DNA from: a bacterium
GTDB taxonomy: Bacteria; RBG-13-61-14; DATKZS01
Direction of reading: 5' to 3'
Assembly: GCA_963674965.2 (NCBI GenBank)
Contig: CAXXFL010000001.1
Coordinates: 704,001-768,000 of the forward strand
DNA: 64,000 bases
Part shown: piece after piece, positions 3,336-40,278 of the stretch
Numbering within the stretch: the first letter of the stretch is position 1
Layout: each line of letters begins with the position of its first letter
Translations under genes and position numbers: made by a program
Notes under the pieces: model-generated
The model's input: only the letters and a program-made list of their open reading frames with translations
What the model was told of the DNA's origin: nothing
Database searches by the model: none

Positions 3336-3533
3336 TAAGCGGCTCCTTAAAGAATTGGATGTGTAATTTGCTAAATAGCATACAAGGATATCCCAACGCA
3401 AGCATTGCGATAGATAAAGATGCAAATAGAGGAGGGAGGTTACGAATTTTCCGGTTGCCAGTCGAGCTGTCGGGGAAATAATAGCATTATCCCGGAGCTG
3501 CGCGGTGTTCATTCCGGGCCGGAGGTTCCTATA

Positions 3534-3640
3534 GTCCCAAAGGGGCGGCGGCCTGCCCATCCGGACAATTCCCTTTACGGAACTTTCCGTCCTGGCCCCA
3601 AAGGGGCGTAGGTCTAAAGCCCGTGGCGACAACCCTGGGG
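3534..3640. repeat. REP-like palindromic element (GCCCCAAAGGGGCG..GCCCGTGGCGACAACCCTGGG) plus partial copy
   Basis: GCCCC-AAA-GGGGC hairpin at 3595 and GTCCCAAAGGGGCG copy at 3534, just past the gpmA stop. Confidence 0.45.
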
Positions 3641-3660
3641 TAATGAATATATAAAAACCT

Positions 3661-6422: not shown

Positions 6423-6432
6423 GGGTAGGTTC

Positions 6433-24600: not shown

Positions 24601-26778
24601 GGAGAAAAGCTCCATGTTGTCAGTAATCTTGTCCTCGGGGATGACGCCCAGCTCCATAAAGGACTTACCGATTATCTGGTCCTTGGTCCATCCAGCCACC
24701 TCGAACTCGTTGTCGTTGAAGTCGATGATCCGGCCGTCGAGACCGATCAGGGTAATCATCTCGGGAGAGCGCTCGAACAGGGTCCGGTATTTTTCCTCGC
24801 TTTGCCTGAGAGCGTCGAGGGCGGCCTTGCTTTCGGTCACGTCGGTGTTGACCCCGATCCATTTGGTGGGAGTTCCAGACTCGTCGCGGAGGGCGAAGCC
24901 CCTGCTCTGAACCGTAATATAAGTCCCGTCTTTCTTTTTAACGCGGTACTCGGCCTCGAAGGGAGTGCCCTCCTCGAGGTGCCGGGCCACGGCCTCGAGA
25001 ACGCGGGGACGGTCGTCGCGATGGATTTGGGCGTTGTTGCCGTAAAAGTCGCGGGGAAACTGGCCGGGCTCGTATCCGAGCATGCCGTCAATGTCGCCGT
25101 ACCAGTTCATGCGCAGGGTCCGGGGGTCGGCCTCGTAAATCAGGTCGGTGGCGAGGCTGGCGGCTATGCGGAACCTTTCCTCGCTGGCCTCCAGCGCCGC
25201 CCTGGCCCTGCGGCGTTCCGAGATGTCGATGACGGTGGCCGCAATATATGACGATTCGCCTCGCCCTTCCTTGATCAAAATTGCGTTGACAAGAGCGGGA
25301 AAACGGGTCCCGTCCTTTCTCTCCAATAATATTTCCTCGGCGTTGAAGCTCTCCTCGGCGTTGACCTTGTTCCTGAGATCGACGGCCCGCTCAGGACCGA
25401 GAACGCGGAACAGGTCCCTGAAATTCATGCCCACCAATTCCGAGGCGGCGTACCCGAGCGCGTCCGCCATCGCTCCGTTGACGTAGGTGAAATCCCCTCT
25501 CGCGTCCACGATGCAGTTGCCCGTGCCGGACTGGTCGGAGATGGCCTTGAACTTTTTCAGTTCCTCCTCGGCCCGCCTCTTCGCGGTCACGTCCCGAGCC
25601 ACCGCCACGAACTGAACCGCCTTTCCGTTTTCGAATAACGGGGCCCCGCTGACGGATACGATCAGAAGCTCGCCCGACCGAGTGACCATCTCGTACTCGG
25701 CGCCCTGAATGGTCTCGCCCGACAAGACCCTGACCGCGTCCATGTAGGCCTTATCGAGGGAGCGGGGAGAAAATATCTTCATCTCCGTAAGATGAAGTCC
25801 AACCACCTCCTCGGGCGGGAAGCCGAAGACGCGTTTGCTCGAGGGAGAGGCGGCGGTAACGCGCAAATCGCCGCCCATGGCGAAGATCACGTCGGTCACG
25901 TTGTCGAAGTGGAGACGGAACTTTTCCTCGCTCTCGCGCAGGCCCTTCTCGGCCTCGATCTTTTCCGTAACGTCGAGAAAGGTGACAAGCGCGCACCTGC
26001 GGCCGTTGACCCAGGCCGAGCCGCCGGAGCAGTCCAGGACCCTCAAGGCCCCGTCCTTTCGTATGATCTTCGCCGAGAACTGGCCCGGCGGCTCTTTGTT
26101 CCCGATCCAGTCGCGGGAAAATTTTATTACCTTGCCAAGTTCCTCCGGCGCGAGCTGATTAAGCACGGCGCCGCCGGCGAGCTCCGAGAAGTCCTTTAGC
26201 CCGTAGGCCGCCACGGCCGCGGGGTTGGCGTAAATCATGCCCAGGTCCTCGTCGAAAACGAGGATGCCGTTTTGGGACTTGTCCGCGATCACTCGGAAAA
26301 GCTCGGGCCCTCCGGCAAGGTCGGCGGCGCCCGGGTCCTTGGAGGCAAGAGGGAGGGGGCGGCAAACGGCAATGCCCTTTCCACCCTCGACCATGAAGGG
26401 AATAAATAAAAGGATTACCTGCCTGGACGACCCGTTCGCGGCCAGGGAACATTCGATTTTATGGGGCAGACGAGACTCGAGGCAGGCGAGGATGGCGGAA
26501 TCGACGCGGCCCTTGCTTTCCGCGCCGGGGAATATCCTTTCCGCGATTTCCTCGACGCTTTGGTCGGGAAAGTCGAACTCGCGCCGAAAGGAATCGCTGA
26601 CCTCGATCAGTCTTTGCGCCTCGAAGACCAGAAGCGCGCCGCTCTCCCGGGCAAGATCGGGCAAGATGGACCGAAAGAAATCATCCCTCGAGATAAGGGG
26701 CGTTGAATAAGCTCCAGGGTCTGCCATTGATGTAGTACTCCCTTGGTACGCGCCCTCCGCGAAAAGGCGCTGAGCCAT
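21619..26778 (-). CDS. Multi-PAS/GAF hybrid sensor with HisKA and receiver; ATPase domain degenerate (start may be 26727)
   Basis: About 8-9 PAS/PAC repeats, GAF, AHAINN H-box, receiver VVDDE..IIDARIP..KKPF. Confidence 0.9.
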   Translation of the reverse strand: MAQRLFAEGAYQGSTTSMADPGAYSTPLISRDDFFRSILPDLARESGALLVFEAQRLIEVSDSFRREFDFPDQSVEEIAERIFPGAESKGRVDSAILACLESRLPHKIECSLAANGSSRQVILLFIPFMVEGGKGIAVCRPLPLASKDPGAADLAGGPELFRVIADKSQNGILVFDEDLGMIYANPAAVAAYGLKDFSELAGGAVLNQLAPEELGKVIKFSRDWIGNKEPPGQFSAKIIRKDGALRVLDCSGGSAWVNGRRCALVTFLDVTEKIEAEKGLRESEEKFRLHFDNVTDVIFAMGGDLRVTAASPSSKRVFGFPPEEVVGLHLTEMKIFSPRSLDKAYMDAVRVLSGETIQGAEYEMVTRSGELLIVSVSGAPLFENGKAVQFVAVARDVTAKRRAEEELKKFKAISDQSGTGNCIVDARGDFTYVNGAMADALGYAASELVGMNFRDLFRVLGPERAVDLRNKVNAEESFNAEEILLERKDGTRFPALVNAILIKEGRGESSYIAATVIDISERRRARAALEASEERFRIAASLATDLIYEADPRTLRMNWYGDIDGMLGYEPGQFPRDFYGNNAQIHRDDRPRVLEAVARHLEEGTPFEAEYRVKKKDGTYITVQSRGFALRDESGTPTKWIGVNTDVTESKAALDALRQSEEKYRTLFERSPEMITLIGLDGRIIDFNDNEFEVAGWTKDQIIGKSFMELGVIPEDKITDNMELFSKILGGEEAGPIEVEVETRDKGHRWLENYVTFLNKDGKPFGVQVITRDVTDRKEMEKSLRESEMRFRLAAHVASDAIYEWDARTFDFKWFGDVDSMLGYGRGEFPRNVVAAKDVVHPDDQEKVIKAVADHVAKKDDFNLEYRLKRKDGSWAWISSRGVAVRDDEGKLAKWIGVNSDISAAKKASRIAQIQRELGMMLSQGLDAQSALDYSLSAAIQISEMEGGGLYLVDHEKDVLELMVHRGLSDKFVDAVRFVPRVEETEGGLLEGAALYCRVTDLPDFAARAGLEEGLDSIVILPLRTGERVLGSLHLSSSRPGRPAMDVRHALESVASHIAAVAARLEAEKALRQSEERARVLFKSIPAPTFTWCKKGEDFILLEYNDAAMKFTDGAIIDYVGMKAGEIYEREPERIAEIERAFREKTGFEKEIEFKKDGMILTLLVKYAFVPPDRVIVHMDDVTGRVRMGDEAMRTREKYRALAESAVDLIWVTGMDFRPKYVSPSVEALRGFTADEVMNESVEEALEPESAAAARRSIAEVLRRESAPGESPEESVVLDLGFNTKSGGVLWTETRATLLRDQLGRLSGIHGISRPKEKPFLAAGAREAGREAYFRSLQLESMGVLSSSVAHAINNSLAVMKGYAEILAGDLEDDSDSRLCAEKVRSAADQASRWTEKVKETTSPSTMNKVPVNADALVRETLKEMETALAAGPLVRIKTPEIEELINADMAALRLLVSNLAASMARGLMEDMEDAWLEVETGVDKVNEEMLSQSGFDAGPGMYFRATFKSDGGPEGLEIFKEALDSKRIGLIDFGGDEALLAAASLLARALGGAILAKSQNGKRTVSLLLPARREKGKDMDPVRRPEKDDRQRKILVVDDEEAILDVTTRLLGRMGYKALGAIDAQKAAEIITREKEDMDLAIIDARIPNSSGPEIMRMIRKIKPDIKIVACSGAVNGAEVKEMVALGAALVIKKPFSMQRLADAVKRVLEGGPDQGED

Positions 26779-27502: not shown

Positions 27503-28525
27503 TTGGGCGCTTCTCGCAAAATATACGTAGCTTTGGCGGCGTTTATGTCGGTGATCCTATTTGGGACCCTGGGATACGTGTTTCTCGAGGGGGCCGGCTT
27601 TCTCGACGCCATGTACATGACCATCATCACGGTGGCGTCGGTGGGCTACGAGGAGACCGTCGATCTCGACCAAAAAGGCCGCGTTTTCACGATGATCCTT
27701 ATCCTGGCCGGCCTTCTGACGTGGACCCTTTTTACCGTCAACCTGGTGGCTTTCCTGGTGGAGGGCGAGTTCCGCCGCCTTTTTCTTCACGCCCGGGCGA
27801 TGAAGAGGATTAGTAGAATGAAAAACCATTACGTTATCTGCGGGCTGGGCCAGGTCGGGACCTCGGCCCTCGAGGAGTTCATGGCCATCGGCGTTCCCTG
27901 CGTGGTCGTGGAAAAGGACACCCGGGTCATCGAGGACGTCAAGGAAAAGTATCCCGAGCTTCTCGTCATCCATGGAGACGCCACCAACGACGAGACCCTC
28001 GAGGCGGCCAACGTGCAGAAGGCAAGGGGACTGATGGCCGCGGCCGAGAGCGACGCGGACAACCTATTTATCGTGCTCAGTTCCCGCGCCAAGAACCGGG
28101 ACCTGGTTATCGTGTCCCGAGCCACCCGCACACAAAGCCGGGACAAGCTCCTTTACGCCGGCGCCAACCACGTGGTCATGCCCAACGTGACGGGCGGAAT
28201 GAGAATGGCCTCCCAGATGCTGAGACCGCAGGTGTGCGATTTCCTTGACGTCATGATGACCGGTACCAAGGAAATCCTCCGCATCGAGCAGGCCGTCATC
28301 GATAAAAGCTCGCCCCTGGCGGGCATGACCCTGGTCGACGCCTGCATCCCTCAAAAGACGGGCCTTTTAGTACTGGCCATCCTGCACAAGGACGGAACAT
28401 TCGTTTACAATCCCACCTCCATGGAAAAGATACTGGCCGAGGATACCCTGGTGGTGCTGGGCCGGGCCGACCAGATGCCCGCTCTCGGCAAGCTGATCGG
28501 GTCCAGGTCGGAGGCTAGCCGCTAG
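27503..28525 (+). CDS. Potassium channel protein (2TM pore + TrkA-N/TrkA-C RCK)
   Basis: TVASVGY filter, ICGLGQVG, GDAT, TrkA-C. Confidence 0.9.
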   Translation: MGASRKIYVALAAFMSVILFGTLGYVFLEGAGFLDAMYMTIITVASVGYEETVDLDQKGRVFTMILILAGLLTWTLFTVNLVAFLVEGEFRRLFLHARAMKRISRMKNHYVICGLGQVGTSALEEFMAIGVPCVVVEKDTRVIEDVKEKYPELLVIHGDATNDETLEAANVQKARGLMAAAESDADNLFIVLSSRAKNRDLVIVSRATRTQSRDKLLYAGANHVVMPNVTGGMRMASQMLRPQVCDFLDVMMTGTKEILRIEQAVIDKSSPLAGMTLVDACIPQKTGLLVLAILHKDGTFVYNPTSMEKILAEDTLVVLGRADQMPALGKLIGSRSEASR

Positions 28526-29183
28526 GCTTGCCCGTTTTCTTTCGAGGATCGATATACGCGGAATGGTCCGAGCCGGACATGGCCCGCAGTATGCCCACCA
28601 CCGACCTGGCCATGGCGTCTATTACCGCGTCACGCTCGAGGCCCGGGTCATGAGCGTACTCGTTTAAAATGGCCGTGACCGCCGCCAGGATGGCCCGTGA
28701 GGCCAGGCGCACGTCAAAGGGAGGAAGCCAGCCCCTGTCTATATGGTCTTGAAGGTCGCGGGTCTGCTCCTCGTGGTAAAGACGGCGCTCCTCCATGGCC
28801 AGTCGCCTCAACTCGGGAGGCATACGCTCGGTCTCTCCCGTCAGGAGCGAAAAGATCACCCGGTGCTTTTCCGCGAAGTTCATGAACTCCGTCACCGCCC
28901 GGACGTTGCGCTCCTCCAGGGAAACCGAGGAGGGAAGGTAGCGGACCTCGCGCAAAAAACGGCGAAGCGCCACGTGAGCGTCGTCCACCACCGCCGCGAT
29001 AAGGTCGTTCTTGTTCTTGAAGTGATGGTAAAAAGAGCCCACCGACGAACCGGCCCGCTCCGCTACCACGCGAACCGAAACCCCCTCGAAGCCCCGCTCG
29101 GAAATGATCTCGGTGGCGGCCCTTAACAGGTCGACCCTCGTGTGCTCTCCCCGGCTCTGCTTTTTCCTGCGCGTCTTCTCCAT
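28515..29183 (-). CDS. TetR/AcrR family transcriptional regulator
   Basis: HTH ..VAERAGSSVGSFYHHFKNK; start chosen downstream of TTGACA-17-TATGTT promoter. Confidence 0.92.
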   Translation of the reverse strand: MEKTRRKKQSRGEHTRVDLLRAATEIISERGFEGVSVRVVAERAGSSVGSFYHHFKNKNDLIAAVVDDAHVALRRFLREVRYLPSSVSLEERNVRAVTEFMNFAEKHRVIFSLLTGETERMPPELRRLAMEERRLYHEEQTRDLQDHIDRGWLPPFDVRLASRAILAAVTAILNEYAHDPGLERDAVIDAMARSVVGILRAMSGSDHSAYIDPRKKTGKPSG

Positions 29184-29193
29184 CGATTTTCCT

Positions 29194-29236
29194 GGAACAA
29201 CGGTTCTAACATAAGCCATGGCCTGGAAGTTGTCAA
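29194..29236 (-). promoter_or_regulatory. tetR promoter with adjacent GAAC-N4-GTTC operator
   Basis: Minus strand TTGACA(29236)-17-TATGTT(29213); GGAAC-AACG-GTTCT at 29194-29207. Confidence 0.65.
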
Positions 29237-29337: not shown

Positions 29338-29385
29338 TTGACCGGCCGGCGGCTTCGTGTTAAATAGAACGAACGTTCTGATTTA
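29338..29385 (+). promoter_or_regulatory. Operon promoter with palindromic operator
   Basis: TTGACC-17-TAAATA; TAAAT-AGAAC-GAAC-GTTCT-G-ATTTA palindrome over -10/+1. Confidence 0.7.
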
Positions 29386-29421
29386 CAAGAAGCGCCCCAT
29401 TAAGCTAACAAGGAGGAACCC

Positions 29422-30162
29422 TTGAAAATCGTGGCAATAAATGGAAGTCCCCGCAAGTGGAAGGGCAACACGGAAAGGGTCCTTAAACCTTTCCTCGAGG
29501 GGGCCAGCTCGGCGGGCGCCGAGGTCGAGGTCATTTACGTCAAGGAAAAAAACATAAAGCCCTGTCTTGGATGTAACTCATGCTTTCTCAAGACGCCGGG
29601 CCGCTGCGTGCAAAAGGACGACATGGCCGATATCATCGAGTCGATCCGCTCCAGCGACGTGATCGTACTGGCCTCTCCCATCTACGTTGGAGGAGTAACC
29701 GGCCAGACCAAGACCTTTCTCGACCGCCTCACTCCCTTGTCTCTTCCCTTTCTCGAGGTGGTGGACGGATACAGCGTCCATGAAAAACGGGAAGACTTCA
29801 AGCTTCGGGGGATCGCGTTCGTTTCTAACAACGGTTTTCACGAGCTATATCATTTCGACGACCTGATCGCGCACGTCAAGTCCGTGGCCAAGATGATGCA
29901 GACGGAATTTTTAGGCGCGATCTTAAGGCCCCATGGCGTAATTCTCGAGATGGCCGAGAAGCTCATGCCCGACAAGACGGCGGCCGTTTACGACGCGGCC
30001 CGCCGCGCCGGAGTCGAGTTGGTGGAAAAGGGCAGGGTCTCGGCCGAGCTCGAGGCCGAGGTGGCCCGGGAGCTTTTGCCTCGCGACTATTTCAACAAGG
30101 CGATGAACGATTATTTCCGCAAGGCGTGGGATGAAGCCGCGAAAGGCGAAACAATTAACTGA
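29422..30162 (+). CDS. Iron-sulfur flavoprotein / NADPH-dependent FMN reductase family
   Basis: INGSPR..GNT, CLGCNSC..C, DDM, LASPIY; AAGGAGG RBS + TTG. Confidence 0.88.
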   Translation: MKIVAINGSPRKWKGNTERVLKPFLEGASSAGAEVEVIYVKEKNIKPCLGCNSCFLKTPGRCVQKDDMADIIESIRSSDVIVLASPIYVGGVTGQTKTFLDRLTPLSLPFLEVVDGYSVHEKREDFKLRGIAFVSNNGFHELYHFDDLIAHVKSVAKMMQTEFLGAILRPHGVILEMAEKLMPDKTAAVYDAARRAGVELVEKGRVSAELEAEVARELLPRDYFNKAMNDYFRKAWDEAAKGETIN

Positions 30163-30190
30163 AACAAACAAAGGAAAGGCGGCCGATAAT

Positions 30191-31807
30191 ATGGACGTAA
30201 TCGAGACGAAAATCGACAAGTCCTCGGACGAGTACAAGAAGAACTTCGAGGACATGGCCGCGCTGGTCGAGGACCTTAACAAAGAGCTCGACCGCGCCTG
30301 GAACGAGCGCTCCGGGAAGTCCCTCGCCCGTCTCGAGGAGTCGGGCAAGCTTCCGGCCAAGAAGAAGCTCGAGCTTCTCCTGGATAAAAACACCCCCTTT
30401 CTCGAGCTTTGCCCCCTGGCGGCCAAGGACATGTACGACGGTAAAATCCACAAGGCCGGACTGGTCAAGGGCATAGGCGTGGTCTCGGGCAAGGAGGCGG
30501 CGATCAGCGTCAACGACGCCACCATCAAGGGCGGCTCGGCCTATCCCATGACGGTGAAAAAGATGCTTAGGGGCCAGACCATCGTCATGGAAAACCGCTT
30601 GCCCTCGATAAGCCTGATCGACTCGGCCGGCGCTTTCCTTCCCCTTCAGGCCGAGATATTCCCTGACTACGACGGGGGAGGCCGGGTTTTTTACAACCAG
30701 GCCATGATCTCGAAGATGGGCATCCCCCAGATCGCGGCGGTCATGGGACTTTGCACGGCCGGCGGCGCCTACGGCGTGGCCATGTGCGACGACGTGGTCC
30801 ACGTAAAGGGCCACGGGGCCATTTTCCTTGGCGGCCCGCCCCTGGTGAAGGCGGCCACGGGGGAGGAGGTGACGGCCGACCAGCTTGGCGGGGCCGAGGT
30901 CCATTGCGTCGAGTCGGGCGTGTCCGACTACATCGCGGAGGATGACGCCCACGCCATCGCCATAATCCGGAACATCGTGAAGAACCTTCCCCCCACCAGG
31001 AAGACCGAGCTGGCCATGGAGGACCCCGAGCCTCCGGCCTACGATCCCAAGGAACTTTACGGCGTGGTCAGCCCGGACCTTTCCAAGCCCTACGACATCA
31101 GGGAGGTGATAGCCCGGATTGTGGACGGCTCCAAATTCCTCGAGTTCAAGGAACACTACGGGACCTCACTCATCTGCGGCTGGGCCCACATCCACGGCTA
31201 CCCAGTAGGGATTTTGGGAAACAACGGCATCATCTTCTCGCAAGACGCCCTCAAGGCCACCCAGTTCATGCAGCTTTGCGACCGCCGCGAGGTCCCTCTC
31301 CTCTTCCTCCAGAACATCAACGGCTTCATTATCGGCAAGGCCTACGAGGAGGGCGGCATTACCAAGAACGGCCATAAAATGGTCAACGCCGTGTCCACCG
31401 TCTCGGTGCCCAAGTTCACGGTCATAGTGGGAGCGTCATTCGGAGCGGGCAACTACGCCATGTGCGGAAGGGCCTACTCGCCCCGCTTTCTCTATACCTG
31501 GCCCAACGCCCAGATCGGGGTCATGGGAGGGAAGCAGGCCGCGGGGGTGCTCGAGACCATAACCAACGACCAGCGCCAACGCCTCGGCCAGGAGCCCCTT
31601 ACCGAGGAGGAGGCCGCCAAGATAGTCGAGCCCATCATCGCCCGGGCCGCCGAGCAGGGAAACGCCTATTACGCCACGGCCAGGCTATGGGACGACGGGA
31701 TCATCGACCCCGCCAAGACCAGGGACGTGCTCGGGCTAAGCATCTCGGCGGCGCTGAACGCGCCCATCCGGGACGACAAGCTCGGGTACGGCGTGTTCAG
31801 GATGTAA
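30191..31807 (+). CDS. Acyl-CoA carboxylase carboxyltransferase subunit (MCC/geranyl-CoA carboxylase beta-like)
   Basis: NDATIKGG, CTAGGAY, GPPLVKAATGE, GAGNYAMCGR, ARLWDDG, YGVFRM. Confidence 0.92.
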   Translation: MDVIETKIDKSSDEYKKNFEDMAALVEDLNKELDRAWNERSGKSLARLEESGKLPAKKKLELLLDKNTPFLELCPLAAKDMYDGKIHKAGLVKGIGVVSGKEAAISVNDATIKGGSAYPMTVKKMLRGQTIVMENRLPSISLIDSAGAFLPLQAEIFPDYDGGGRVFYNQAMISKMGIPQIAAVMGLCTAGGAYGVAMCDDVVHVKGHGAIFLGGPPLVKAATGEEVTADQLGGAEVHCVESGVSDYIAEDDAHAIAIIRNIVKNLPPTRKTELAMEDPEPPAYDPKELYGVVSPDLSKPYDIREVIARIVDGSKFLEFKEHYGTSLICGWAHIHGYPVGILGNNGIIFSQDALKATQFMQLCDRREVPLLFLQNINGFIIGKAYEEGGITKNGHKMVNAVSTVSVPKFTVIVGASFGAGNYAMCGRAYSPRFLYTWPNAQIGVMGGKQAAGVLETITNDQRQRLGQEPLTEEEAAKIVEPIIARAAEQGNAYYATARLWDDGIIDPAKTRDVLGLSISAALNAPIRDDKLGYGVFRM

Positions 31808-31811
31808 GGAG

Positions 31812-33305
31812 ATGGCCATGTTCAAAAAAATACTGGTGGCCAACCGGGGAGAGATCGCAAGGCGCGTCATTCACGCGTGCCGAGAGATGGGCGTCGAGAC
31901 CGCGGCCGTTTACTCCGAGGCCGACGAAAAGGCCCTCCACGTTCTCGAGGCCTCCGAGGCCGTGAGCCTGGGGCCGTCCGAGCCCTCTCAAAGCTATTTG
32001 AATATCGACAAGATAGTCGAGGCGGTTAAAAAGACCGGCGCCGAGGCCGTGCATCCGGGCTACGGCTTTTTGGCCGAGAACGCCCGCTTCGCCAAGCGGA
32101 TCGAGGAGGAGGGCGTCGTTTTCATCGGACCGCCCTCGGCCGTGATCCGGGACCTGGGCGACAAGATCGTGGCCCGGCGCATCATGAAGGACGGCGGAGT
32201 GCCCATTACTCCCGGCATGATCGAGCCGGGCCCGGACCCGGCCCGGGTGGCCGCCGAGGCCGACAAGATAGGATATCCCGTTCTTATCAAGGCCGCCGCC
32301 GGCGGGGGGGGCAAGGGCATCAGGATCGTGAACTCGGGCGGGGAGATCGCCGACGCCCTGGCCGGGGCCTCGAGCGAGGCGAAAAGCGCCTTTGGCGACG
32401 GCTCGGTTTACGTGGAGAAATTTTTTCCCAAGGCCCGGCATATCGAGTTCCAGATACTGGCCGACTCGCATGGGAACGCGATCCACCTTTGGGAGCGCGA
32501 GTGCTCGATCCAGCGCCGTCACCAGAAGATAATCGAGGAGTCTCCCGCCAACGTGATGACGCCCGAGCTGCGGGAGAAGATGGGCCAGGCCGCGGTGGCG
32601 GCGGCCCGGGCCTCGGGCTACGTGAACGCGGGCACGGTCGAGTTCCTGGTGGACGAGAAGGGCGACTTTTATTTCCTCGAGGTCAACACCCGCCTCCAGG
32701 TCGAGCATCCCGTGACCGAGATGATCACGGGGATTGACATAGTAAGAAAGCAGCTCGAGATAGCCTCGGGGGAAAAGCTGGGTATAAGGCAGGAGGACGT
32801 TATGGGCAGGGGCCACGCCATCGAGTGCCGCCTTTACGCTGAGGACCCGAGAAGCGACTTCATGCCCTCGCCCGGCAAGATCAAGTACTACAAGGAGCCC
32901 GCCGGACCGGGGGTAAGGGTTGACGGCGGGGTCTACTCGGGCTTCGAGGTCCCGGTGGATTACGACCCCATCGTGTCTAAGCTCATAGTACACGGCGAGG
33001 ACCGGGACAAGGCCATAGCCAGGATGATCAAGGCCCTCGGCGACTACGTCGTTTTGGGAGTGACCACGCCCATTCCCTTTATGATCGACGTGCTGAACTC
33101 GGAGGCGTTTCGGGGCGGCGACATATTCACCGACTTCATCCCTCGCCATTTCGCGGACTGGAAGCCGGCGAACAGGAATAAAAGGGAGGCGCTTATCGCC
33201 TTCGTGGCGGACGAGCTTTCGGGCCGTGCCAGTAAAAAGCCCATTGCCGCGGGCAAGTCCCGGGTCCCGTCGCCTTTTGACACGCTGGGCAACTGGCGCC
33301 TCTAG
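31812..33305 (+). CDS. Biotin carboxylase subunit
   Basis: ANRGEIA, HPGYGFLAEN, GGGGKG, ERECSIQRRHQK, RLQVEHPVTE. Confidence 0.95.
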   Translation: MAMFKKILVANRGEIARRVIHACREMGVETAAVYSEADEKALHVLEASEAVSLGPSEPSQSYLNIDKIVEAVKKTGAEAVHPGYGFLAENARFAKRIEEEGVVFIGPPSAVIRDLGDKIVARRIMKDGGVPITPGMIEPGPDPARVAAEADKIGYPVLIKAAAGGGGKGIRIVNSGGEIADALAGASSEAKSAFGDGSVYVEKFFPKARHIEFQILADSHGNAIHLWERECSIQRRHQKIIEESPANVMTPELREKMGQAAVAAARASGYVNAGTVEFLVDEKGDFYFLEVNTRLQVEHPVTEMITGIDIVRKQLEIASGEKLGIRQEDVMGRGHAIECRLYAEDPRSDFMPSPGKIKYYKEPAGPGVRVDGGVYSGFEVPVDYDPIVSKLIVHGEDRDKAIARMIKALGDYVVLGVTTPIPFMIDVLNSEAFRGGDIFTDFIPRHFADWKPANRNKREALIAFVADELSGRASKKPIAAGKSRVPSPFDTLGNWRL

Positions 33306-33327
33306 GCGATGAAACGGAGAAGGTCGG

Positions 33328-33855
33328 ATGGAATACAATTTAATCCTGGATGGTGAGACCGCGCCTGTCGAGGTGGAGACCGAGGGCGAAGGAAAGATTT
33401 CGGTTACCATAGACGGCGTCAAAAGCGACGTGGCCTACTCGGTAATCGGCGAGCATCGGATACGTCTGGTTATCGAGGGGAAGGCGGTCGACGTCTTCGT
33501 GACGGGCGACTCGAGCGGGAAATCCATCTTGATCGGCGGCGAGTCCTTTTTGGTGGCCGATAAGGACGCGGCTGGGCAGCCGTCCTTCCGCAAGGTCGCG
33601 GTGGGGTCATTGCCGGACGTGGTTACCGCTCCCATACCGTCGGTGGTGGTGTCCGTGGCCGTGTCCGAGGGTGACCGCGTGGACAAGGGCCAGGCCGTGA
33701 TGGTGGTCTCGGCCATGAAAATGGAGACCACCCTCAGGGCGCCTTACAGCGGCACGGTGATCAGGGTGAACGCCGGGGAAGGCGACAAGGTCATGCCCGG
33801 GCACGTGCTGGTGGATATCGAGCGGGACGAGGACGGGGAGGGAGAACATGTCTGA
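33328..33855 (+). CDS. Biotin carboxyl carrier subunit (BT-like + BCCP)
   Basis: SAMKME biotinylation site. Confidence 0.9.
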   Translation: MEYNLILDGETAPVEVETEGEGKISVTIDGVKSDVAYSVIGEHRIRLVIEGKAVDVFVTGDSSGKSILIGGESFLVADKDAAGQPSFRKVAVGSLPDVVTAPIPSVVVSVAVSEGDRVDKGQAVMVVSAMKMETTLRAPYSGTVIRVNAGEGDKVMPGHVLVDIERDEDGEGEHV

Positions 33856-34624
33856 GGGCGAGCTTTTTTACCGCGTCGAGAAGAACGTGGGCTATTTCAC
33901 CATCAACCGGGAGGCCAAAAGGAACTCGATCAGTCCCGACGTGATCACGTCCTTTTTAAAGTACCTGGACGAGGCGGAGGCCGACGCCGAGGTCCGGGCC
34001 GTTTGCGTGACCGGCGCGGGGGACAGGGCCTTTTGCTCGGGCGCCGACCTGGGCGGGGCCATCGAGGGAGGCGAGACCGGCGCCTCGGGCTTTTCCTATT
34101 ACGCCAAACTCCTTAAGCGCATCGCGTCCTTTCCCAAGCCCACGGTGGCACGGGTCAATGGATACTGCCTGGCGGGAGGGATGGGCTTCATGCTGGCCTG
34201 CGATATAGTAATCGCGACGAAGGACGCCAAGTTCGGAACGCCCGAGGTCAACGTGGGGTTGTGGCCCATGATGATCGGCGCCCTCATCTTCCGGAACGCG
34301 CCAAGGAAGAAGGCCATGGAGATGATCCTTTTGGGCGAGAAGCTGGGCGCGGACAAGGCCGTCGAGATGGGCCTTATCACCCGCGCCGTTCCCAGAGATA
34401 AACTGGACGATGAGGTGGGCGGCGTCCTTGCCGGCCTGGCGGGCAAAAGCCCGATCGGCATGAAGATCGGCAAGGACGCCTTTTACAAGTCGGCCCATTT
34501 GCCGCTCGACGAGGCTCTTGACTACCTGGCCGAGCGGCTGGTTGAGGTCACGGCCACGGAGGACGCGGTCGAGGGGATCACGGCCTTCATCCAGAAAAGG
34601 CCCCCCCTGTTCAAGGGCAAATAA
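33848..34624 (+). CDS. Enoyl-CoA hydratase/isomerase (methylglutaconyl-CoA hydratase-like)
   Basis: FCSGADL, GYCLAGG, FGTPEVNVG. Confidence 0.9.
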   Translation: MSEGELFYRVEKNVGYFTINREAKRNSISPDVITSFLKYLDEAEADAEVRAVCVTGAGDRAFCSGADLGGAIEGGETGASGFSYYAKLLKRIASFPKPTVARVNGYCLAGGMGFMLACDIVIATKDAKFGTPEVNVGLWPMMIGALIFRNAPRKKAMEMILLGEKLGADKAVEMGLITRAVPRDKLDDEVGGVLAGLAGKSPIGMKIGKDAFYKSAHLPLDEALDYLAERLVEVTATEDAVEGITAFIQKRPPLFKGK

Positions 34625-34649
34625 ACGTCCTTATTGAAAGGAGACTCGA

Positions 34650-35519
34650 ATGTCGGAGCTTAAAGACAAGTGCGTTATATCCTGCGCTCTTACCGGGGTG
34701 CTTACCAATCCCAAGACGCACAACGTTCCGGTCACGCCCGAGGAGATGGCCAACGAGGCCAGGCGGGCGGCGGACGCGGGGGCCACCATCGTGCATTGCC
34801 ACTTCCGGGACCAGCGACCGGACATGGGCCACATGCCCTCGTGGGAGCCCGAGGTGGCCAACGCCATTATCCAGGCCATCAAGGCCGAGGTCCCCGAGAT
34901 GATCATCAACATGTCCACGGGCGTGCCGGGCCTGGACATCGAGGGGCCGCTGTCATGCCTCCGAGCCGGCAAGCCCGACATGGCGGCTATGAACTCGGGG
35001 TCCCTCAACTACCTCAAGCTCACGAGCAAGAACGAGTGGGCCTGGCCCCCCATGCTCTTCGACAACCCCATTGACAAAATACAAGGCTACCTGGACGTTA
35101 TGGACGAGTTCAACATCGTGCCCGAGTGCGAGTGTTTCGACACGGGCATCGTCAGGAGCGTGGTCCTCTTCGAGAGAAAGGGCATGCTCAAGTCTCCGGT
35201 CCACGTGTCCCTGGTCATGGGCGTGGCCTCGGGCATGCCCGCCGACCCGGACCTCCTGCCCATTCTCATCCGGCAACTGAATCCGGGGACCCGGTTCCAG
35301 ACCATCGTCATCGGCCGGGGCGAGATATGGGACGTTCACAGAAGGTGCGCCGAGCTTGGCGGCAACGTGCGCACGGGGTTGGAGGACACCTTCTATCTTC
35401 CCTCGGGGGACAAGGTCGACTCGAACGGCCCCCTGGTCGAGGCCCTGGTCAAGGTCGTCCGCGAAACCGGCCGCGAGCCGGCCAACTTCGAGGAAGCGAG
35501 GAAGATAGCGCTGCAATAA
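34650..35519 (+). CDS. Beta-keto acid cleavage enzyme (BKACE, DUF849/Kce family)
   Basis: CALTG, PVTPEE, HCH Zn ligands, NMSTG, GSLN, PECECFD, RTGLED. Confidence 0.92.
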   Translation: MSELKDKCVISCALTGVLTNPKTHNVPVTPEEMANEARRAADAGATIVHCHFRDQRPDMGHMPSWEPEVANAIIQAIKAEVPEMIINMSTGVPGLDIEGPLSCLRAGKPDMAAMNSGSLNYLKLTSKNEWAWPPMLFDNPIDKIQGYLDVMDEFNIVPECECFDTGIVRSVVLFERKGMLKSPVHVSLVMGVASGMPADPDLLPILIRQLNPGTRFQTIVIGRGEIWDVHRRCAELGGNVRTGLEDTFYLPSGDKVDSNGPLVEALVKVVRETGREPANFEEARKIALQ

Positions 35520-35520
35520 T

Positions 35521-35711
35521 CGGGTAACCCGCTAGAGGGGGGGGTGACCCGGCCGGTTTGAAAAAACCGTCCGGGTCCGGCGAAGCCGGATAGGTATATG
35601 GGGAAGATGACGAAGAACGGTGGAAAGACGTGGTCGCGAGAGGGGCGGAGCGGGATACCTATCCCGCTACACGGGACCCGCGCGGTTTCTACGAAACCGG
35701 ACGGGTCACCC
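35521..35711. repeat. Cluster of palindromic REP-like hairpins inside operon
   Basis: Related hairpins GACCCG..CGGTTT/AAACCG..CGGGTC at 35546-35577 and 35675-35707; also 35576-35590 and 35649-35670. Confidence 0.7.
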
Positions 35712-35773
35712 GGGCTGGGACAGCGCGGCAGAGGATTATAGGTTAAGTATTTCAGACATATAAGGAGGCGACA

Positions 35774-36922
35774 ATGGGTTTTGATAAGTATTTCACTGAG
35801 GAACACAACATTTTTCGCATGCAGCTCCGCTCTTTCGTGGAGAAGGAGCTTGCTCCTCACGCGGAGGAGTGGGAGAAGACGGGCTTTCCCAACGAGGTTT
35901 TCAAGAAGCTGGGTGAGCTTGGTTACCTGGGCCTCCGCTACCCGGAGGACGTGGGCGGCGCGGGCGTGGATTACTGGTACACGGTGATCTTCCATGAGGA
36001 GCTGACGCGGTGCAACTCGGGCGGCGTGGTCATGGGGGTGGGGGTCCAGACGGACATGTGCACGCCCGCCATCGCGGCCCACGGCTCTCCCGAGCAAAAG
36101 GCCGAGTTTTTAACGCCCGTGATCAAGGGCGAGAAGATCGGTTCCATCTGCGTGACCGAGCCGGGCGCGGGCTCGGACGTGAAGGCCATCCGCACGAGAG
36201 CGGTAAGGGACGGCGACTATTACGTCATCAACGGTTCCAAGACCTTCATCACCATGGCCTCGCGGGCCGACTTCCTGACCCTGGCCGCCAAGACCGACCC
36301 GGACGGCGGTTATAACGGCATATCTCTTTTCACATTTCCCACGGACACGCCCGGCTATACCATGCTCCGGAAGCTGGACAAGTTCGGCATGCACTCGGCC
36401 GACACCTGCGAGCTGACCATCGAGGATTGCCGGCTGCATAAGAAGTATCTCCTGGGCGAGGAGAACAAGGGATTCTACTACATCATGGAGGGCTTCCAGT
36501 TCGAGCGCATGGTCTCGGTCATCGCCTGCCTGGCCGCGGCGGAGAACTGCTTGAAGCAAACCATCGAGTACGGCCGCACGCGCGAGGTCTTCGGCAAGCC
36601 CATCATCCGGCACCAGGCCAACGCCCATATGATCGCCAACCTGGCCACCGAACTGGAGGCTGCCAAGGCCCTGGCCTACCATTGCGCGGACATGCTGAAC
36701 AGGGGGGAGGACGCGCTCAAAGAGGTGAGCATGTGCAAGCTTTTCGCCTGCGAGACGGGGGTCAAGGTAATGGACCGTTGCCTCCAGCTTCACGGCGGTT
36801 ACGGCTACATGGAGGAATACCACGTGGGCCGATCGTACCGGGACAACCGTCTCAACACCATCGGCGGCGGGGCCTCGGAGGTGATGCGAGAAATCATCTC
36901 GAGGATCGTCTGCGCCGGCTGA
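35774..36922 (+). CDS. Acyl-CoA dehydrogenase, AtuD (citronellyl-CoA dehydrogenase)-like
   Basis: GVQTDMCTPA, TEPGAGSD, NGSKTFIT, QLHGGYGYMEEY, IGGGASE. Confidence 0.9.
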   Translation: MGFDKYFTEEHNIFRMQLRSFVEKELAPHAEEWEKTGFPNEVFKKLGELGYLGLRYPEDVGGAGVDYWYTVIFHEELTRCNSGGVVMGVGVQTDMCTPAIAAHGSPEQKAEFLTPVIKGEKIGSICVTEPGAGSDVKAIRTRAVRDGDYYVINGSKTFITMASRADFLTLAAKTDPDGGYNGISLFTFPTDTPGYTMLRKLDKFGMHSADTCELTIEDCRLHKKYLLGEENKGFYYIMEGFQFERMVSVIACLAAAENCLKQTIEYGRTREVFGKPIIRHQANAHMIANLATELEAAKALAYHCADMLNRGEDALKEVSMCKLFACETGVKVMDRCLQLHGGYGYMEEYHVGRSYRDNRLNTIGGGASEVMREIISRIVCAG

Positions 36923-37022
36923 GGCGGCCTTAAATATATGGTCAAAACCCTTGTCAACGCGTCTCGAAGCGGCGCGGGCGCTTGATTTTTCCAGCGACTG
37001 TGCTATAAAATTATAAGAACAA

Positions 37023-37097
37023 GGGCGCTTAACTCAGCGGGAGAGTGCCACCTTCACACGGTGGAAGTCGTAGGTTCAAATCCTACAGTGCCCACCA
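37023..37097 (+). tRNA. tRNA-Val(CAC)
   Basis: GGGCGCT acceptor/AGTGCCC-ACCA, anticodon arm CCACC-TTCACAC-GGTGG, GGTTCAAATCC T-loop; upstream TTGATT..TATAAA. Confidence 0.96.
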
Positions 37098-37109
37098 TAA
37101 TAACGGCAA

Positions 37110-37131
37110 GGGGGCTATATGCCCCCATTTT
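37110..37131 (+). terminator. Putative terminator after tRNA
   Basis: GGGGGC-TATAT-GCCCCC-ATTTT. Confidence 0.55.
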
Positions 37132-37264: not shown

Positions 37265-38326
37265 TTGAGCGGCAACCACTCGAGTACCCAGCCCGGCCGT
37301 CCCTTCATGAACAGGGGTGAAATTTATTATTATCTTAGGAGTCGCATTCCTCGCGAGCGCGACTCCCTTTTAAGTAAAGTCTCCAGCATCCGCCGGGCCG
37401 GCTCACCCAACCTGGTTTATTGCGTGGGCGTCATCACTATTTCAAGTCATTGCGTAAGAAATTGTATCTACTGCTCTTTTCGGGCTGACCGCACCAGCGC
37501 CTCCAAGTTTCGACTCTCCAGGAACGAGATTATGGAGGCGGCTGAAAGGACCCGGGCCGCCGGTATCAAGTACATCATGCTTTACTCGGCCGACGATCCT
37601 ACCATCAAAACCGAGGACGTTATCCAGTTGACGCGAGACCTGAAAAACAATTTCGACTTCGACGTGACCTTGTCCATGGGCGAGAAGGAGGCGGCGGTTT
37701 ACAACGCCTGGTCCGACGCGGGGGCAAGGTCCTATTGCATCCGGCACGAGACCTGCGACCCTCATCTATACCGGCGCATCCGTCCGTCCATGTTCTGGGT
37801 GGACAGAATCCGCGCCCTGGACGCGGTCAAGGCCTCGGGCCTTCGCCTGGCCACGGGCATCATGGTGGGCATGCCCAACCAGAGCTTCGAGAGCCTGGTC
37901 GAGGACATAGTCCTTTTTCAGGACGACAAGGTCTTCGGCGTGGTGGTCGAGCCCTACTCGCCGCCGGTGGACTCGCCCGGACATTCCCTTGCCATGCGGC
38001 CGGAGAACCTAATCGTGAACCCCGACCTGGCCACCATGGAAAAAGTCATCGCCATTACCCGCATAAACCGGCCGGACCTGATCATACCTCTTACCAATAC
38101 TCACCTTAAGCTCTACGACGCGCTGTCCGACAAGAAGCTTTTTACGGCCGGCGCCAACGCGGTCCTTCTCGAGATGACGCCTTCTCAATATATGCCCGTC
38201 GCCTCGAGCCATCCCTGCGCCGGATGGCCCGCGGACGAACCCGGCATTATCGAGAAGATCGGCGAGACCCTCGACAAGGGAGGATGGACCTTTACTCTCG
38301 AGTCTCCCATCAACTTCGGGAGATGA
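37265..38326 (+). CDS. Radical SAM protein, HydE/BioB/PylB-like
   Basis: CVRNCIYC, LSMGE, RHET, GIMVGMPNQ, AGANAV; GGAGG RBS + TTG. Confidence 0.85.
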   Translation: MSGNHSSTQPGRPFMNRGEIYYYLRSRIPRERDSLLSKVSSIRRAGSPNLVYCVGVITISSHCVRNCIYCSFRADRTSASKFRLSRNEIMEAAERTRAAGIKYIMLYSADDPTIKTEDVIQLTRDLKNNFDFDVTLSMGEKEAAVYNAWSDAGARSYCIRHETCDPHLYRRIRPSMFWVDRIRALDAVKASGLRLATGIMVGMPNQSFESLVEDIVLFQDDKVFGVVVEPYSPPVDSPGHSLAMRPENLIVNPDLATMEKVIAITRINRPDLIIPLTNTHLKLYDALSDKKLFTAGANAVLLEMTPSQYMPVASSHPCAGWPADEPGIIEKIGETLDKGGWTFTLESPINFGR

Positions 38327-38385
38327 CCCGGCGTTTCAGAGTCCGATGATGTTGCTCTTCAATCTTCGAAATATTTCTCGCGGCC

Positions 38386-39024
38386 ATGGCCATGCCTGAA
38401 ATGAAGGGCCCCCGTAAGATATCCGATCTTACCTGCATTATCATGGCGGGCGGAAAAAGCAGCAGAATGGGCTCCGACAAGGCCCTCCTCAAACTGGGAG
38501 GAATGACTCTCATCGAGCGCTCCGCCCGCCAGGCGGCCAAGGTTTTCGAGCGCGTGGTTATATCGGGGCCGCCAAGCCTGGGCTGGACCGGCTTTCGGGC
38601 CATTCCCGACGACCGCCCGCCCGAGGGACCGCTGATGGGGCTTTTATCGGTTATGAGGACCATCGATTCCCCGTGGTTTTTCACGCTTCCCTGCGATTCG
38701 CCCTTTGTGCCCGAGGCCTTTTTGCGGGGCATGGCCGGCCTCAGGGAGGGAGTGGACGCGGTCGTTCCCATGATCGAGGACTATTACGAGCCGCTCCACG
38801 CCCTGTACTCGAGGTCCTTGAGAGAGGAGGCCGAGCGTTTCGTGGCTGAGGGGGAGCGGCAGATACTTCGTCTTTTCGAGAGGGCGAGAACGAGGGTCGT
38901 GGGCCCGGAACTTCTTTTTGAATGGGACCCCCGGTCGCTCGCCTTCTTTAACGTGAATTATCCAGGTGACCTTATTGAGGCCGAGGAAATCCTTCAAGGC
39001 CTCACGCGGGAGGGACTTGACTGA
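38386..39024 (+). CDS. mobA: Molybdenum cofactor guanylyltransferase
   Basis: MAGGKSSRMGSDKA, GPLMG, PCDSPF, EPLHALY, FFNVN. Confidence 0.92.
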   Translation: MAMPEMKGPRKISDLTCIIMAGGKSSRMGSDKALLKLGGMTLIERSARQAAKVFERVVISGPPSLGWTGFRAIPDDRPPEGPLMGLLSVMRTIDSPWFFTLPCDSPFVPEAFLRGMAGLREGVDAVVPMIEDYYEPLHALYSRSLREEAERFVAEGERQILRLFERARTRVVGPELLFEWDPRSLAFFNVNYPGDLIEAEEILQGLTREGLD

Positions 39025-39168
39025 TAGTGGGCTTTCGTTTGACTGGATGGAAGCCGGTTGGTATGTTTGAACGGCGTCGCAAAGGCGAAAACACGAACAA
39101 TTTTCGCTTTACAACCTGGTAAAACGCAAATAAAATATAGGATAACGAAGACTTATGGAGGGTTTGAA

Positions 39169-40278
39169 ATGAAGCGTCGCGATTTTATCAACCTTACCGC
39201 CGCTGGGGCGGCCGCTTTGGCCCTGGTTGGAAAACCAGGATCGAGCCGGGCCTTTGACATGCTACTCGAGGATTGCCGGGACCTTCAGCGCTTCGACTGG
39301 TTCGAGGCCGGGCCGGACGGCAAATTGCTTCTGTCCGACGGGGTGGCCGACGAGATCATCGACTTCCATACTCACATCGGGCTATCCTTCCTCGCCACTC
39401 CCCACGTCGACCTCGGCAGGCGGGATGAAGACCCGCTGACCTTTTTCCCGGTGGAAGGCAATCCCATTGACCTCAGCCTTTACGCGGCCGACAGCTTCAC
39501 CGAGGAAAACGCGAAGACGGCTCGCAAGGAATCGGTGCGCCAGGCCTACTCGATAAGGGGATACGCCTCGACTCATACTCCGCTCAACCTGCTCGATATG
39601 ATGGATCGGACCCGCGTGTCCAAATCGGTCATCCTGGCCATCGACTACCCGGACGGACTTTCCCATAACACCAAACACTATCTTAAGTGCTCGGAGATGT
39701 ACGACCGTCTTATCACCTTTTGCTCGGTCCATCCCCACGACGCGCAAGTCGAGCGGAAGACCCTCAAGTTCAAAGAGAAAGGCGCCGTCGGCATGAAGCT
39801 GCATCCGCCGAACCAACTCGTTCGGGCCAATAACAAAAAATGCATGGAATTGACAAAGATGTGCGGAGAGATTGGCCTACCCTGTCTTTTCCATTCCGGG
39901 CATTCTCCCCTCTCGCCCCAGTCCCTGGCGGACTACCCCGCCATCAAGCACTTCTGGGAGCCAGTCGAGAAGCAGCCGGACACGACGTTCATACTGGCTC
40001 ACGGCGGCATGAACATGTACAAGGAGCTTATCGACCTGGCCGTCCGGCATGAAAACGTTATTATCGAGCTTTCCGGCCAGGCCCCCGGTCCCATCAGCGA
40101 GATGATCGAGGCCGGCCTCGAGGACCGCATGTTATTCGGGTCGGACTGGCCCTATTACGTCGAGGCCCTGCCGCTGGCCAAGGTGCTTATCGGTACTGAG
40201 GGTAAGCCGGAGGCGAGGAAAAAGATACTTTACGACAACGGGGCCAGGCTGTTCGAGCAAATGGGGGTCTCAACTTAA
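39169..40278 (+). CDS. Tat-exported amidohydrolase family protein
   Basis: KRRDFI twin-arginine; DFHTH, KLHP, HSG, AHGG, FGSDWP. Confidence 0.88.
   Translation: MKRRDFINLTAAGAAALALVGKPGSSRAFDMLLEDCRDLQRFDWFEAGPDGKLLLSDGVADEIIDFHTHIGLSFLATPHVDLGRRDEDPLTFFPVEGNPIDLSLYAADSFTEENAKTARKESVRQAYSIRGYASTHTPLNLLDMMDRTRVSKSVILAIDYPDGLSHNTKHYLKCSEMYDRLITFCSVHPHDAQVERKTLKFKEKGAVGMKLHPPNQLVRANNKKCMELTKMCGEIGLPCLFHSGHSPLSPQSLADYPAIKHFWEPVEKQPDTTFILAHGGMNMYKELIDLAVRHENVIIELSGQAPGPISEMIEAGLEDRMLFGSDWPYYVEALPLAKVLIGTEGKPEARKKILYDNGARLFEQMGVST

Follow-up and report, generated by a model that had tools for sequence, protein, structure and literature searches.

An operon of seven co-directional genes, divergent from a TetR-family regulator gene, was analysed in a window of 64,000 nucleotides of bacterial DNA (contig CAXXFL010000001.1, positions 704,001 to 768,000; coordinates given below without a contig are those of the window). 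The genome, designated G000, has 6.5 Mb in 7 contigs and is 97.6% complete; other genomes and loci are identified by G and L numbers. On balance, and with modest confidence, we regard the operon as encoding an oxygen-independent “carboxylate, hydrate, cleave” route that would remove the beta-methyl branch from 3-methyl-branched (isoprenoid-like) acyl-CoAs. Beta-methyl branches block beta-oxidation. Animals remove them by oxygen-dependent alpha-oxidation and Pseudomonas by the carboxylation routes Atu (acyclic terpenes) and Liu (leucine), whose hydratase product, a 3-hydroxy-3-alkylglutaryl-CoA, is cleaved on its thioester side in the manner of HMG-CoA lyase to give acetyl-CoA and a free beta-keto acid. 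A first-pass annotation made from the letters of the window had described the run as an Fe-S flavoprotein, a carboxyltransferase (CT), a biotin carboxylase (BC), a biotin carboxyl carrier protein (BCCP), an enoyl-CoA hydratase (ECH), a BKACE-family enzyme and an acyl-CoA dehydrogenase (ACAD). Open reading frame (ORF) and profile searches of the window recovered all of them and the TetR gene in their places (Table 1), with intergenic gaps of 28, 4, 22, −8 and 25 bases from the flavoprotein gene to the BKACE gene and a 254-base spacer before the ACAD gene. The removal of beta-methyl branches with BKACE as exit enzyme, also proposed there, gains support at the level of sequence from the conservation of the neighbourhood and from three residue-level signals.

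By its sequence the carboxylase is a third kind, a predicted acyl-CoA gamma-carboxylase of a “Gly clade” that is sister to canonical methylcrotonyl-CoA carboxylase (MCC) and separate from it and from geranyl-CoA carboxylase (GCC). The CT tree, built from 82 sequences, 76 of them MCC-like (E ≤ 1e-170, from 71 of 401 diverse genomes) and 6 GCC-like, falls into three clades, those of the GCC-like sequences (6, support 1.0), of canonical MCC (68, support 0.89) and of the window CT (8, support 0.97). Scores of the window CT with solved structures are 641–643 bits for MCC-beta and 457 bits for GCC-beta (5ikl). It is 41–49% identical to the GCC-like CTs, lies outside their clade in the tree and keeps the three-residue insertion of MCC relative to GCC. 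The counterpart of human MCCB Phe191 in the alignment is Gly183, counted along the 558-aa ORF. According to part of the text of Jurado et al. 2015 (PMC4673880), this Phe clashes with geranyl-CoA and GCC has Gly162 at the site, while the MCC variant F191G gains activity on geranyl-CoA and is essentially inactive on methylcrotonyl-CoA. The selectivity site is Gly in all 8 members of the window's clade and Phe in 68 of the 68 canonical MCC sequences (Gly in 0/68). It is also Gly in 120/120 of the closest CT homologues, which are 75–100% identical, come in many cases from metagenome-assembled genomes (MAGs) labelled as Desulfobacter-type, and are named “methylcrotonoyl-CoA carboxylase” in the databases; the close Desulfobacter-type homologues have 75–78% identity and no CT of the 401-genome sample exceeds 63%. 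As a qualification of the Atu-like operon of the first-pass annotation, the CT is no GCC orthologue and belongs to the MCC-sister clade. Both CT types, Gly-clade and Phe-type, occur together in five genomes (G329, G147, G302, G154, G309), which argues for distinct jobs or substrates; G000 has no second MCC-like CT at E ≤ 1e-170. Separate BC and BCCP genes are also found in Gly-clade loci L062–L066. Of the 13 genomes examined from the host's phylum, G000 alone has this CT at E ≤ 1e-150, and among the other 12 the BKACE orthologue occurs in G012 only, so that the distribution is patchy. The CT of G340 (L082), a Gly-clade member, lacks the MCC-type three-residue insertion (DEVGV---AGGRMFYNQ) and has a loop intermediate between the MCC and GCC types.

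The dehydrogenase carries GVQTDMCTPA at residues 90–99, a motif that the first-pass annotation connected with AtuD. In the form GVQTDM(A/C)TPA it recurs in ACADs encoded at L043, L056, L059, G309 and G093 (L060 has GVHTDMCTPA). The motif is confirmed for ACADs of GCC-type clusters, and the dehydrogenase may be of AtuD type. The single liu-cluster ACAD checked has a different motif. Identity of the window ACAD is 41–44% to ACADs inside GCC-type clusters and 49–50% to those beside the Gly-clade CT (G309) or beside BKACE (G093); solved isovaleryl-CoA dehydrogenases (IVDs) reach 241–265 bits with it and an uncharacterised ACAD 327 bits. The crotonase-fold hydratase has Gly113 and Glu133, 20 residues apart, at the positions equivalent to Glu144 and Glu164, respectively. 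This Gly/Glu pair was found in 11/11 hydratases of BKACE- or carboxylase-linked clusters and in all four LiuC-like controls. Loss of the Glu144 equivalent with retention of Glu164 is given in part of a 2026 report (PMC13689101) as the mark of AtuE, LiuC and ThnL; their substrates bear a free carboxylate, which is thought there to replace the missing base. The window hydratase, having the same pattern, therefore appears built for a carboxylated enoyl-CoA, that is, for the product of the carboxylase. It is 25–28% identical to hydratases of GCC clusters (25–32% over GCC and liu clusters together) and its closest solved relatives are generic hydratases. All three signals, namely Gly183, the ACAD motif and the single-glutamate hydratase, favour a large substrate with a 3-methyl branch over plain leucine or isovalerate.

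The BKACE protein matches PF05853 over profile positions 1–271 of 274 with 265 bits (cut-off 24.8). It falls below all four NCBIfam equivalog cut-offs, including 185 bits versus 382 for the Kce model NF052387, 176 versus 350 and 158 versus 430, and solved structures of the family score at most 127 bits with it. Aligned with 2y7d, a solved Kce chain, the protein has H49-C-H51 and the RTGLED Glu in register with the same Kce residues, which we take to be the zinc ligands; these positions are invariant in 15 aligned sequences. The segment CALTGVLT (residues 12–19) places Leu18 where Kce has a Glu, presumably the amine-binding one, in agreement with what had been read from the letters of the window. 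Members of the clade are 57–86% identical and share the signature CALTGVLT(N/D)P together with a 12-residue LNYLK...WAWPPM insertion. The genome encodes a second BKACE outside the window (G000:C1:861622-862425, minus strand, locus L006/L030; 334 bits on the Pfam profile), which keeps a Kce-like CAVTGAETT with the Glu, has no 12-residue insertion and, judged from these residues, may be a true enzyme of the lysine-fermentation type. The family reaction, as described in part of PMC11961710, converts a beta-keto acid and acetyl-CoA to acetoacetate and an acyl-CoA; the same text reports BKACE15 of Paracoccus crystallised with acetoacetate and acetyl-CoA bound together (PDB 9HNF). A BKACE-clade gene of G453 (C5:732-1571), whose product is 56% identical to the L043 protein, contains one in-frame TGA and could reflect a pseudogene, a sequencing error or recoding.

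Homologous loci were collected from genome contigs, metagenome contigs and an unbiased sample of 401 genomes. Their genes were called with a GC3 filter and Pfam, and an operon partner was counted where a carboxylase part, an ECH, an ACAD or an Isf-like iron-sulfur flavoprotein lay next to BKACE. On genome contigs, 18 of 19 loci hold clade members; partners are present in 5 of these 18, which are all five not labelled Myxococcota, and consist of carboxylase parts or, in L031, of ECH and Isf. Metagenome contigs show partners in 7/11 loci, the other four being contigs of 1.6–4.3 kb. The clade occurs in 13 genomes of the sample and has partners next to BKACE in six: carboxylase genes in G000, G054, G226, G401 and G255, and ECH alone in G012 (a short contig). 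The remaining seven have ACADs only (one genome), no partner within about 9 kb (five) or a contig that is too short (one). Conservation of BKACE beside such genes, which the first-pass annotation had named as a check, is thus found in each of the three collections. The BKACE clade was present in 5/8 genomes with a Gly-clade CT versus 1/63 genomes with Phe-type CTs only; the eight Gly-clade genomes amount to just five families, three of them BKACE-positive.

Gene orders are diverse. BCCP-ECH-BKACE was found in L053, ECH-BKACE-Isf in L031 and L050, and BKACE-Isf in L051; in the last three loci the gene directly adjoining BKACE codes an orthologue of the window flavoprotein (71–72% identity). L043 and L056 have TetR divergent from BKACE-SDR-ACAD-CT-BC/BCCP, and L059 and L060 have CT-ACAD-ECH-BC/BCCP-BKACE. 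Other arrangements are CT-BC/BCCP-x-BKACE (L046, L047), BC/BCCP-BKACE (L044, at a contig end), BKACE-CT (L057), CT-CT-BKACE-ECH-BC (G401, G255) and BKACE convergent with BC-CT..ECH (G054, G226). The Pseudomonas order is atuR divergent from atuABCDEFGH (PMC4847356, from part of the text). BKACE occupies the atuA slot of this order in L043 and L056, and the L059/L060 order equals atuCDEF with BKACE appended. The partner CT of the window is of the MCC-sister type. GCC-like partners occur in L043 and L046, with 743 and 562 bits, respectively, for 5ikl, propionyl-CoA carboxylase (PCC)-like ones in G054 and G226, and a tandem pair in G401 and G255. These loci repeatedly include FMN proteins, namely Isf in the relatives of the window, a nitroreductase (with a ferredoxin) in G054/G226 and, in G401, a protein of the NMO family. 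The tandem locus L075 (G401:C72, 3195-9932) and its counterpart L076 (G255) encode two full-length CTs, BKACE, a single-Glu hydratase, a gap possibly holding BCCP, and a biotin carboxylase, with the NMO-family flavoprotein 1.2 kb beyond a cluster of this type. L069 (G054:C63, 8347-16323) and L079 (G226), from genomes of 1.8–1.9 Mb, have ferredoxin, nitroreductase-family flavoprotein and BKACE in one run. Convergent with this run are genes for a biotin carboxylase, a CT of PCC-like type, a hydratase with a single Glu and an acyl-CoA synthetase.

The first-pass annotation had noted that neither HMG-CoA lyase nor AtuA lies in the window, and profile searches extend this to the whole genome. PF00682 matches there are LeuA, CimA and PycB/OadA-like proteins only, the best score with the HMG-CoA lyase model NF004283 is 64 bits versus a 246-bit cut-off, and AtuA (PF07287) has no match anywhere in the genome. 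The AtuA search is effective, since it detected AtuA in 12/151 genomes of another class. Six of 151 genomes of one class carry a GCC-like CT. Five of the six have AtuA (adjoining the CT in three) and no BKACE; in the sixth, G061, BKACE is present and AtuA absent. The other three genomes with GCC and BKACE likewise lack AtuA, and all four carry a standard HMG-CoA lyase elsewhere. In the eight Gly-clade genomes no HMG-CoA lyase match at E ≤ 1e-60 was found (0/8). Replacement of HMG-CoA lyase by BKACE as a general rule was considered and rejected: the lyase scores over its cut-off in 2/13 BKACE-clade genomes versus 65/401 overall, which is no depletion. Contig C6 begins with a PycB/OadA-like gene (L005, G000:C6:1-2967) that is split into three pieces in different frames, which reflects breakage of the gene or an error of assembly at the contig end.

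The proposed route would begin with the putatively AtuD-like ACAD, which would form a 3-methyl-2-enoyl-CoA and whose electrons may be accepted by the Isf-like flavoprotein. The split carboxylase (CT, BC and BCCP) would carboxylate the 3-methyl group with ATP and bicarbonate, and the single-Glu crotonase would hydrate the resulting 3-alkylglutaconyl-CoA to a tertiary alcohol, 3-hydroxy-3-alkylglutaryl-CoA. Retro-aldol cleavage on the thioester side would give acetyl-CoA and a free beta-keto acid, from which BKACE would make acetoacetate and an acyl-CoA shortened by the branch. In the net balance the branch would leave as acetoacetate, acetyl-CoA would be catalytic, and the shortened acyl-CoA obtained from an isoprenoid chain would be the same as from the textbook lyase-plus-thiolase route. 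We infer the size of the substrate, the order of the steps and, above all, the agent of the retro-aldol step. For the latter we favour BKACE itself, because no HMG-CoA lyase or AtuA was found, because the two substrates of BKACE are the cleavage products of the adduct, and because acetoacetate and acetyl-CoA are bound next to each other in one solved BKACE; an alternative agent would be the crotonase, if it were a hydratase-lyase. A longer substrate is favoured in part since with methylcrotonyl-CoA the BKACE step would return its own substrates. A broader proposal is more speculative and we consider it rather doubtful: the BKACE clade would be bifunctional, combining the retro-aldol split of 3-hydroxy-3-alkylglutaryl-CoA with Claisen exchange and so replacing both the HMG-CoA-lyase/AtuA step and thiolysis, and would form with the Gly-clade split carboxylase a widespread anaerobic route for isoprenoid acids, e.g., those of phytanate-like lipids. 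On this proposal there would also be a hint at the role of the long-unassigned AtuA of Pseudomonas.

Several observations weigh against branch removal through BKACE. AtuA and the BKACE clade coexist in G093, G154 and G309 (weak AtuA-family matches occur also in G401 and G255); there is therefore no strict replacement of one by the other, and exclusivity of the two was rejected. HMG-CoA lyase is missing in 33 of the 71 CT-bearing genomes, only 5 of these 33 have the BKACE clade, and the Gly-clade family of G176 and G329 has neither. BKACE is solitary in 13/13 Myxococcota-labelled loci and in 5/13 sample genomes, therefore in these it would act independently of an adjacent carboxylase. In overall score the CT resembles MCC-beta more than GCC-beta. 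The F191G result stems from another clade, and other residues could refill the pocket of the window enzyme. The operon contains no acyl-CoA synthetase or transporter that would name a substrate, and no precedent of retro-aldol activity was found for a BKACE or for such a crotonase.

The same data were weighed for other functions of the operon. An ordinary leucine/isovalerate pathway of Liu type could have been assembled from divergent parts, namely an MCC, a methylglutaconyl-CoA hydratase and a BKACE acting as a non-homologous HMG-CoA lyase that yields acetoacetate and acetyl-CoA. We judge this unlikely, if worth keeping in mind: the CT does score higher with MCC-beta, its homologues bear the MCC name, LiuC-like hydratases have the same Gly/Glu pattern, and the absence from the genome of another MCC-like CT (E ≤ 1e-170) and of HMG-CoA lyase would make the cluster its sole candidate route for isovaleryl-CoA. 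A NetSyn preprint (10.1101/2023.02.15.528638) also links, in part of its text, one BKACE context cluster to “conversion of valine to leucine”. A canonical MCC function is difficult to reconcile with the Gly present at the Phe191 site throughout the clade and its close homologues, given the essentially inactive F191G variant (PMC4673880, same part), or with the Gly-clade and Phe-type CTs found side by side in five genomes. The ACAD motif is that of GCC clusters and the scores of the ACAD with solved IVDs are low. Furthermore, with acetoacetate as the beta-keto acid the BKACE reaction would be futile, and only a new lyase activity would be useful.

BKACE might instead be a mere neighbour, serving a separate route for a hydrophobic beta-keto acid (beta-ketoisocaproate from beta-leucine, or a medium-chain 3-oxo acid), with the carboxylase pathway leaving through an unrecognised lyase elsewhere. 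The solitary BKACE genes (13/18 clade loci on genome contigs and 5/13 sample genomes), the Gly-clade CT-BC-BCCP modules of L062–L066 with no BKACE nearby and the G093 gene flanked by two ACADs only agree with such independence. We nevertheless hold it for improbable, as the adjacency recurs with four CT types, in at least six gene orders and in unrelated lineages, as ECH and BKACE directly adjoin in three families (the window, G012 and G401/G255), as only 25 bases separate the window BKACE from the gene upstream, and as co-occurrence with Gly-clade CTs (5/8 versus 1/63) is pronounced. Very improbable in our estimate is a carboxylase whose substrate is an unbranched enoyl-CoA (crotonyl-CoA, for instance, giving glutaconyl-CoA) or a 3-oxoacyl-CoA in its enol form, with BKACE processing a 3-oxodicarboxylate, for example 3-oxoglutarate, or the corresponding CoA ester. 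Glutaconyl-CoA would also suit a single-Glu hydratase, Gly at the selectivity site tells only of a different pocket, and the PCC-like CTs beside BKACE (G054/G226, G401/G255) indicate that the partner need not be of MCC or GCC type. The operon, on the other hand, has no 3-hydroxyacyl-CoA dehydrogenase to form the keto group, BKACE has a Trp-rich insertion and carries Leu at a position where binding of a dicarboxylate or amine would call for a charged or polar ligand, and the ACAD is of the GCC-cluster type.

The preferred reading, removal of the branch by carboxylation, follows the same logic as the Pseudomonas Atu system (AtuC/AtuF), in which an ACAD reaction is followed by gamma-carboxylation at the 3-methyl group, by a hydration that gives a tertiary alcohol, and by C-C cleavage. 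The divergent TetR, the ACAD motif of GCC clusters and the Gly at the geranyl-admitting site are common features, as is a hydratase without the general-base Glu, reported for AtuE in the part of PMC13689101 cited above, although the low identity to GCC-cluster hydratases speaks against orthology. Unlike Atu, the window has no GCC/AtuC orthologue, encodes BC and BCCP separately, lacks AtuA, AtuB/G and AtuH, with BKACE and a predicted Fe-S flavoprotein instead, and comes from a small phylum of which 13 genomes were sampled. With Liu (LiuB/LiuD, LiuC, LiuE) it shares the overall proximity of the CT to MCC-beta, the three-residue insertion and the LiuC-like hydratase residues, and differs from it in the Gly at Phe191, the split alpha subunit, the low scores of the ACAD with solved IVDs and the HMG-CoA lyase not found in the genome. 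Compared to Kce, BKACE15 and the 3-oxoadipate and 3,5-dioxohexanoate enzymes, the window BKACE is a full-length PF05853 protein with the HxH and Glu kept, and is distinguished by Leu for the Glu of Kce, the WAWPP insertion of 12 residues and a biotin carboxylase as genomic partner. The hydratase resembles the single-glutamate crotonases AtuE, LiuC and ThnL in the spacing and identity of its Gly/Glu pair, and departs from the GCC and liu hydratases in overall identity; its nearest solved relatives are generic hydratases.

A literature search returned no paper linking BKACE/DUF849 with MCC, HMG-CoA lyase, GCC or acyclic terpenes; the supplementary gene contexts of the NetSyn preprint lay outside this search and could reduce the novelty. 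Sources disagree on which enzyme carries out the cleavage in the Atu route: part of the text of PMC4847356 names AtuA, part of that of PMC4097962 LiuE. If true, the proposed route would mean a new physiological role for the large BKACE family and would establish a third carboxylase clade among proteins now labelled “methylcrotonoyl-CoA carboxylase”, so that the leucine-catabolism annotation of many Desulfobacter-type MAGs may be wrong. It would also be a testable way in which isoprenoid lipids could be degraded anaerobically in sediments, and the function of AtuA could be tested by cross-complementation.

The features of the operon and of its flanks are listed in Table 1. The start of the CT gene is likely the one given there and not that of the longest ORF, because homologues are 538 aa long. 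The product of the first gene has a compact N-terminal motif of four cysteines (C48-x2-C51-x2-C54-x7-C62), which makes the name Fe-S flavoprotein a reasonable one; its only match to solved structures is partial (48 bits). A ribosome-binding site, AAGGAGGA, precedes this gene at about position 29411. The inverted repeat upstream of it is a candidate TetR operator, and a promoter-like site was found on the TetR side (29236-29208). TetR_N and TetR_C_24 also occur together in TetR genes that flank Gly-clade CTs in G176 and G309. The palindromes of the BKACE-ACAD spacer (GACCCGnnCGGTTT type) could be a REP (repetitive extragenic palindromic)-like element or a regulatory or binding site.

Table 1. 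Genes and non-coding elements of the operon region (window coordinates).
Feature	Position	Strand	Basis or remark
TetR-family regulator, divergent from the operon	28515..29219	-	TetR_N 59 bits, TetR_C_24
Inverted repeat, 20-nt arms, 80% complementary, 2 nt between	29352..29393		just upstream of the ribosome-binding site of the first gene
Isf-like iron-sulfur flavoprotein, FMN_red fold	29422..30162	+	PF03358 86 bits
Carboxyltransferase (CT), beta subunit	30191..31807	+	Carboxyl_trans; longest ORF 30131-31807
Biotin carboxylase, 497 aa, unfused to BCCP	31812..33305	+	Biotin_carb_N, CPSase_L_D2, Biotin_carb_C
Separate biotin carboxyl carrier protein (BCCP), 175 aa	33328..33855	+	Biotin_lipoyl 59 bits, AMKM biotinyl-lysine motif
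Crotonase-fold hydratase, single-glutamate type	33848..34624	+	ECH_1 190 bits
BKACE-family Zn TIM-barrel enzyme, distinct clade; proposed exit enzyme	34650..35519	+	PF05853 265 bits
Two related near-identical palindromes (GACCCGnnCGGTTT / AAACCGnnCGGGTC) in the BKACE-ACAD spacer	35546-35577, 35675-35707 (span 35546..35707)		possible REP-like element or regulatory site
Acyl-CoA dehydrogenase (ACAD), type of GCC (atu-like) clusters	35774..36922	+	three ACAD domains
Two terminator-like hairpins after ACAD	36967..37126	+	consensus matches only

The genes directly downstream of the operon (37265-40278) encode a radical SAM protein that is HydE-like (its 154 bits lie below the cut-off), a guanylyltransferase of MobA-like type and an Amidohydro_2 protein for which no NCBIfam family gave a match. 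A biotin protein ligase (BPL_LplA_LipB and BPL_C domains) is encoded beside a type III pantothenate kinase (5634-7221), some 23 kb upstream of the operon. The segment 55570-59446 codes a GMC-type flavoprotein followed by two HGD-D (2-hydroxyglutaryl-CoA dehydratase D-component) proteins, with no activator gene among the ORFs scanned; the HGD-D genes suggest a 2-hydroxyacyl-CoA dehydratase or a related radical enzyme. The minus strand encodes a 1719-aa protein with many PAS domains, a GAF and a receiver domain (21619-26778) and a 616-aa multihaem cytochrome c (1875-3725). The host appears to be an anaerobe or a metal reducer that invests heavily in signalling.

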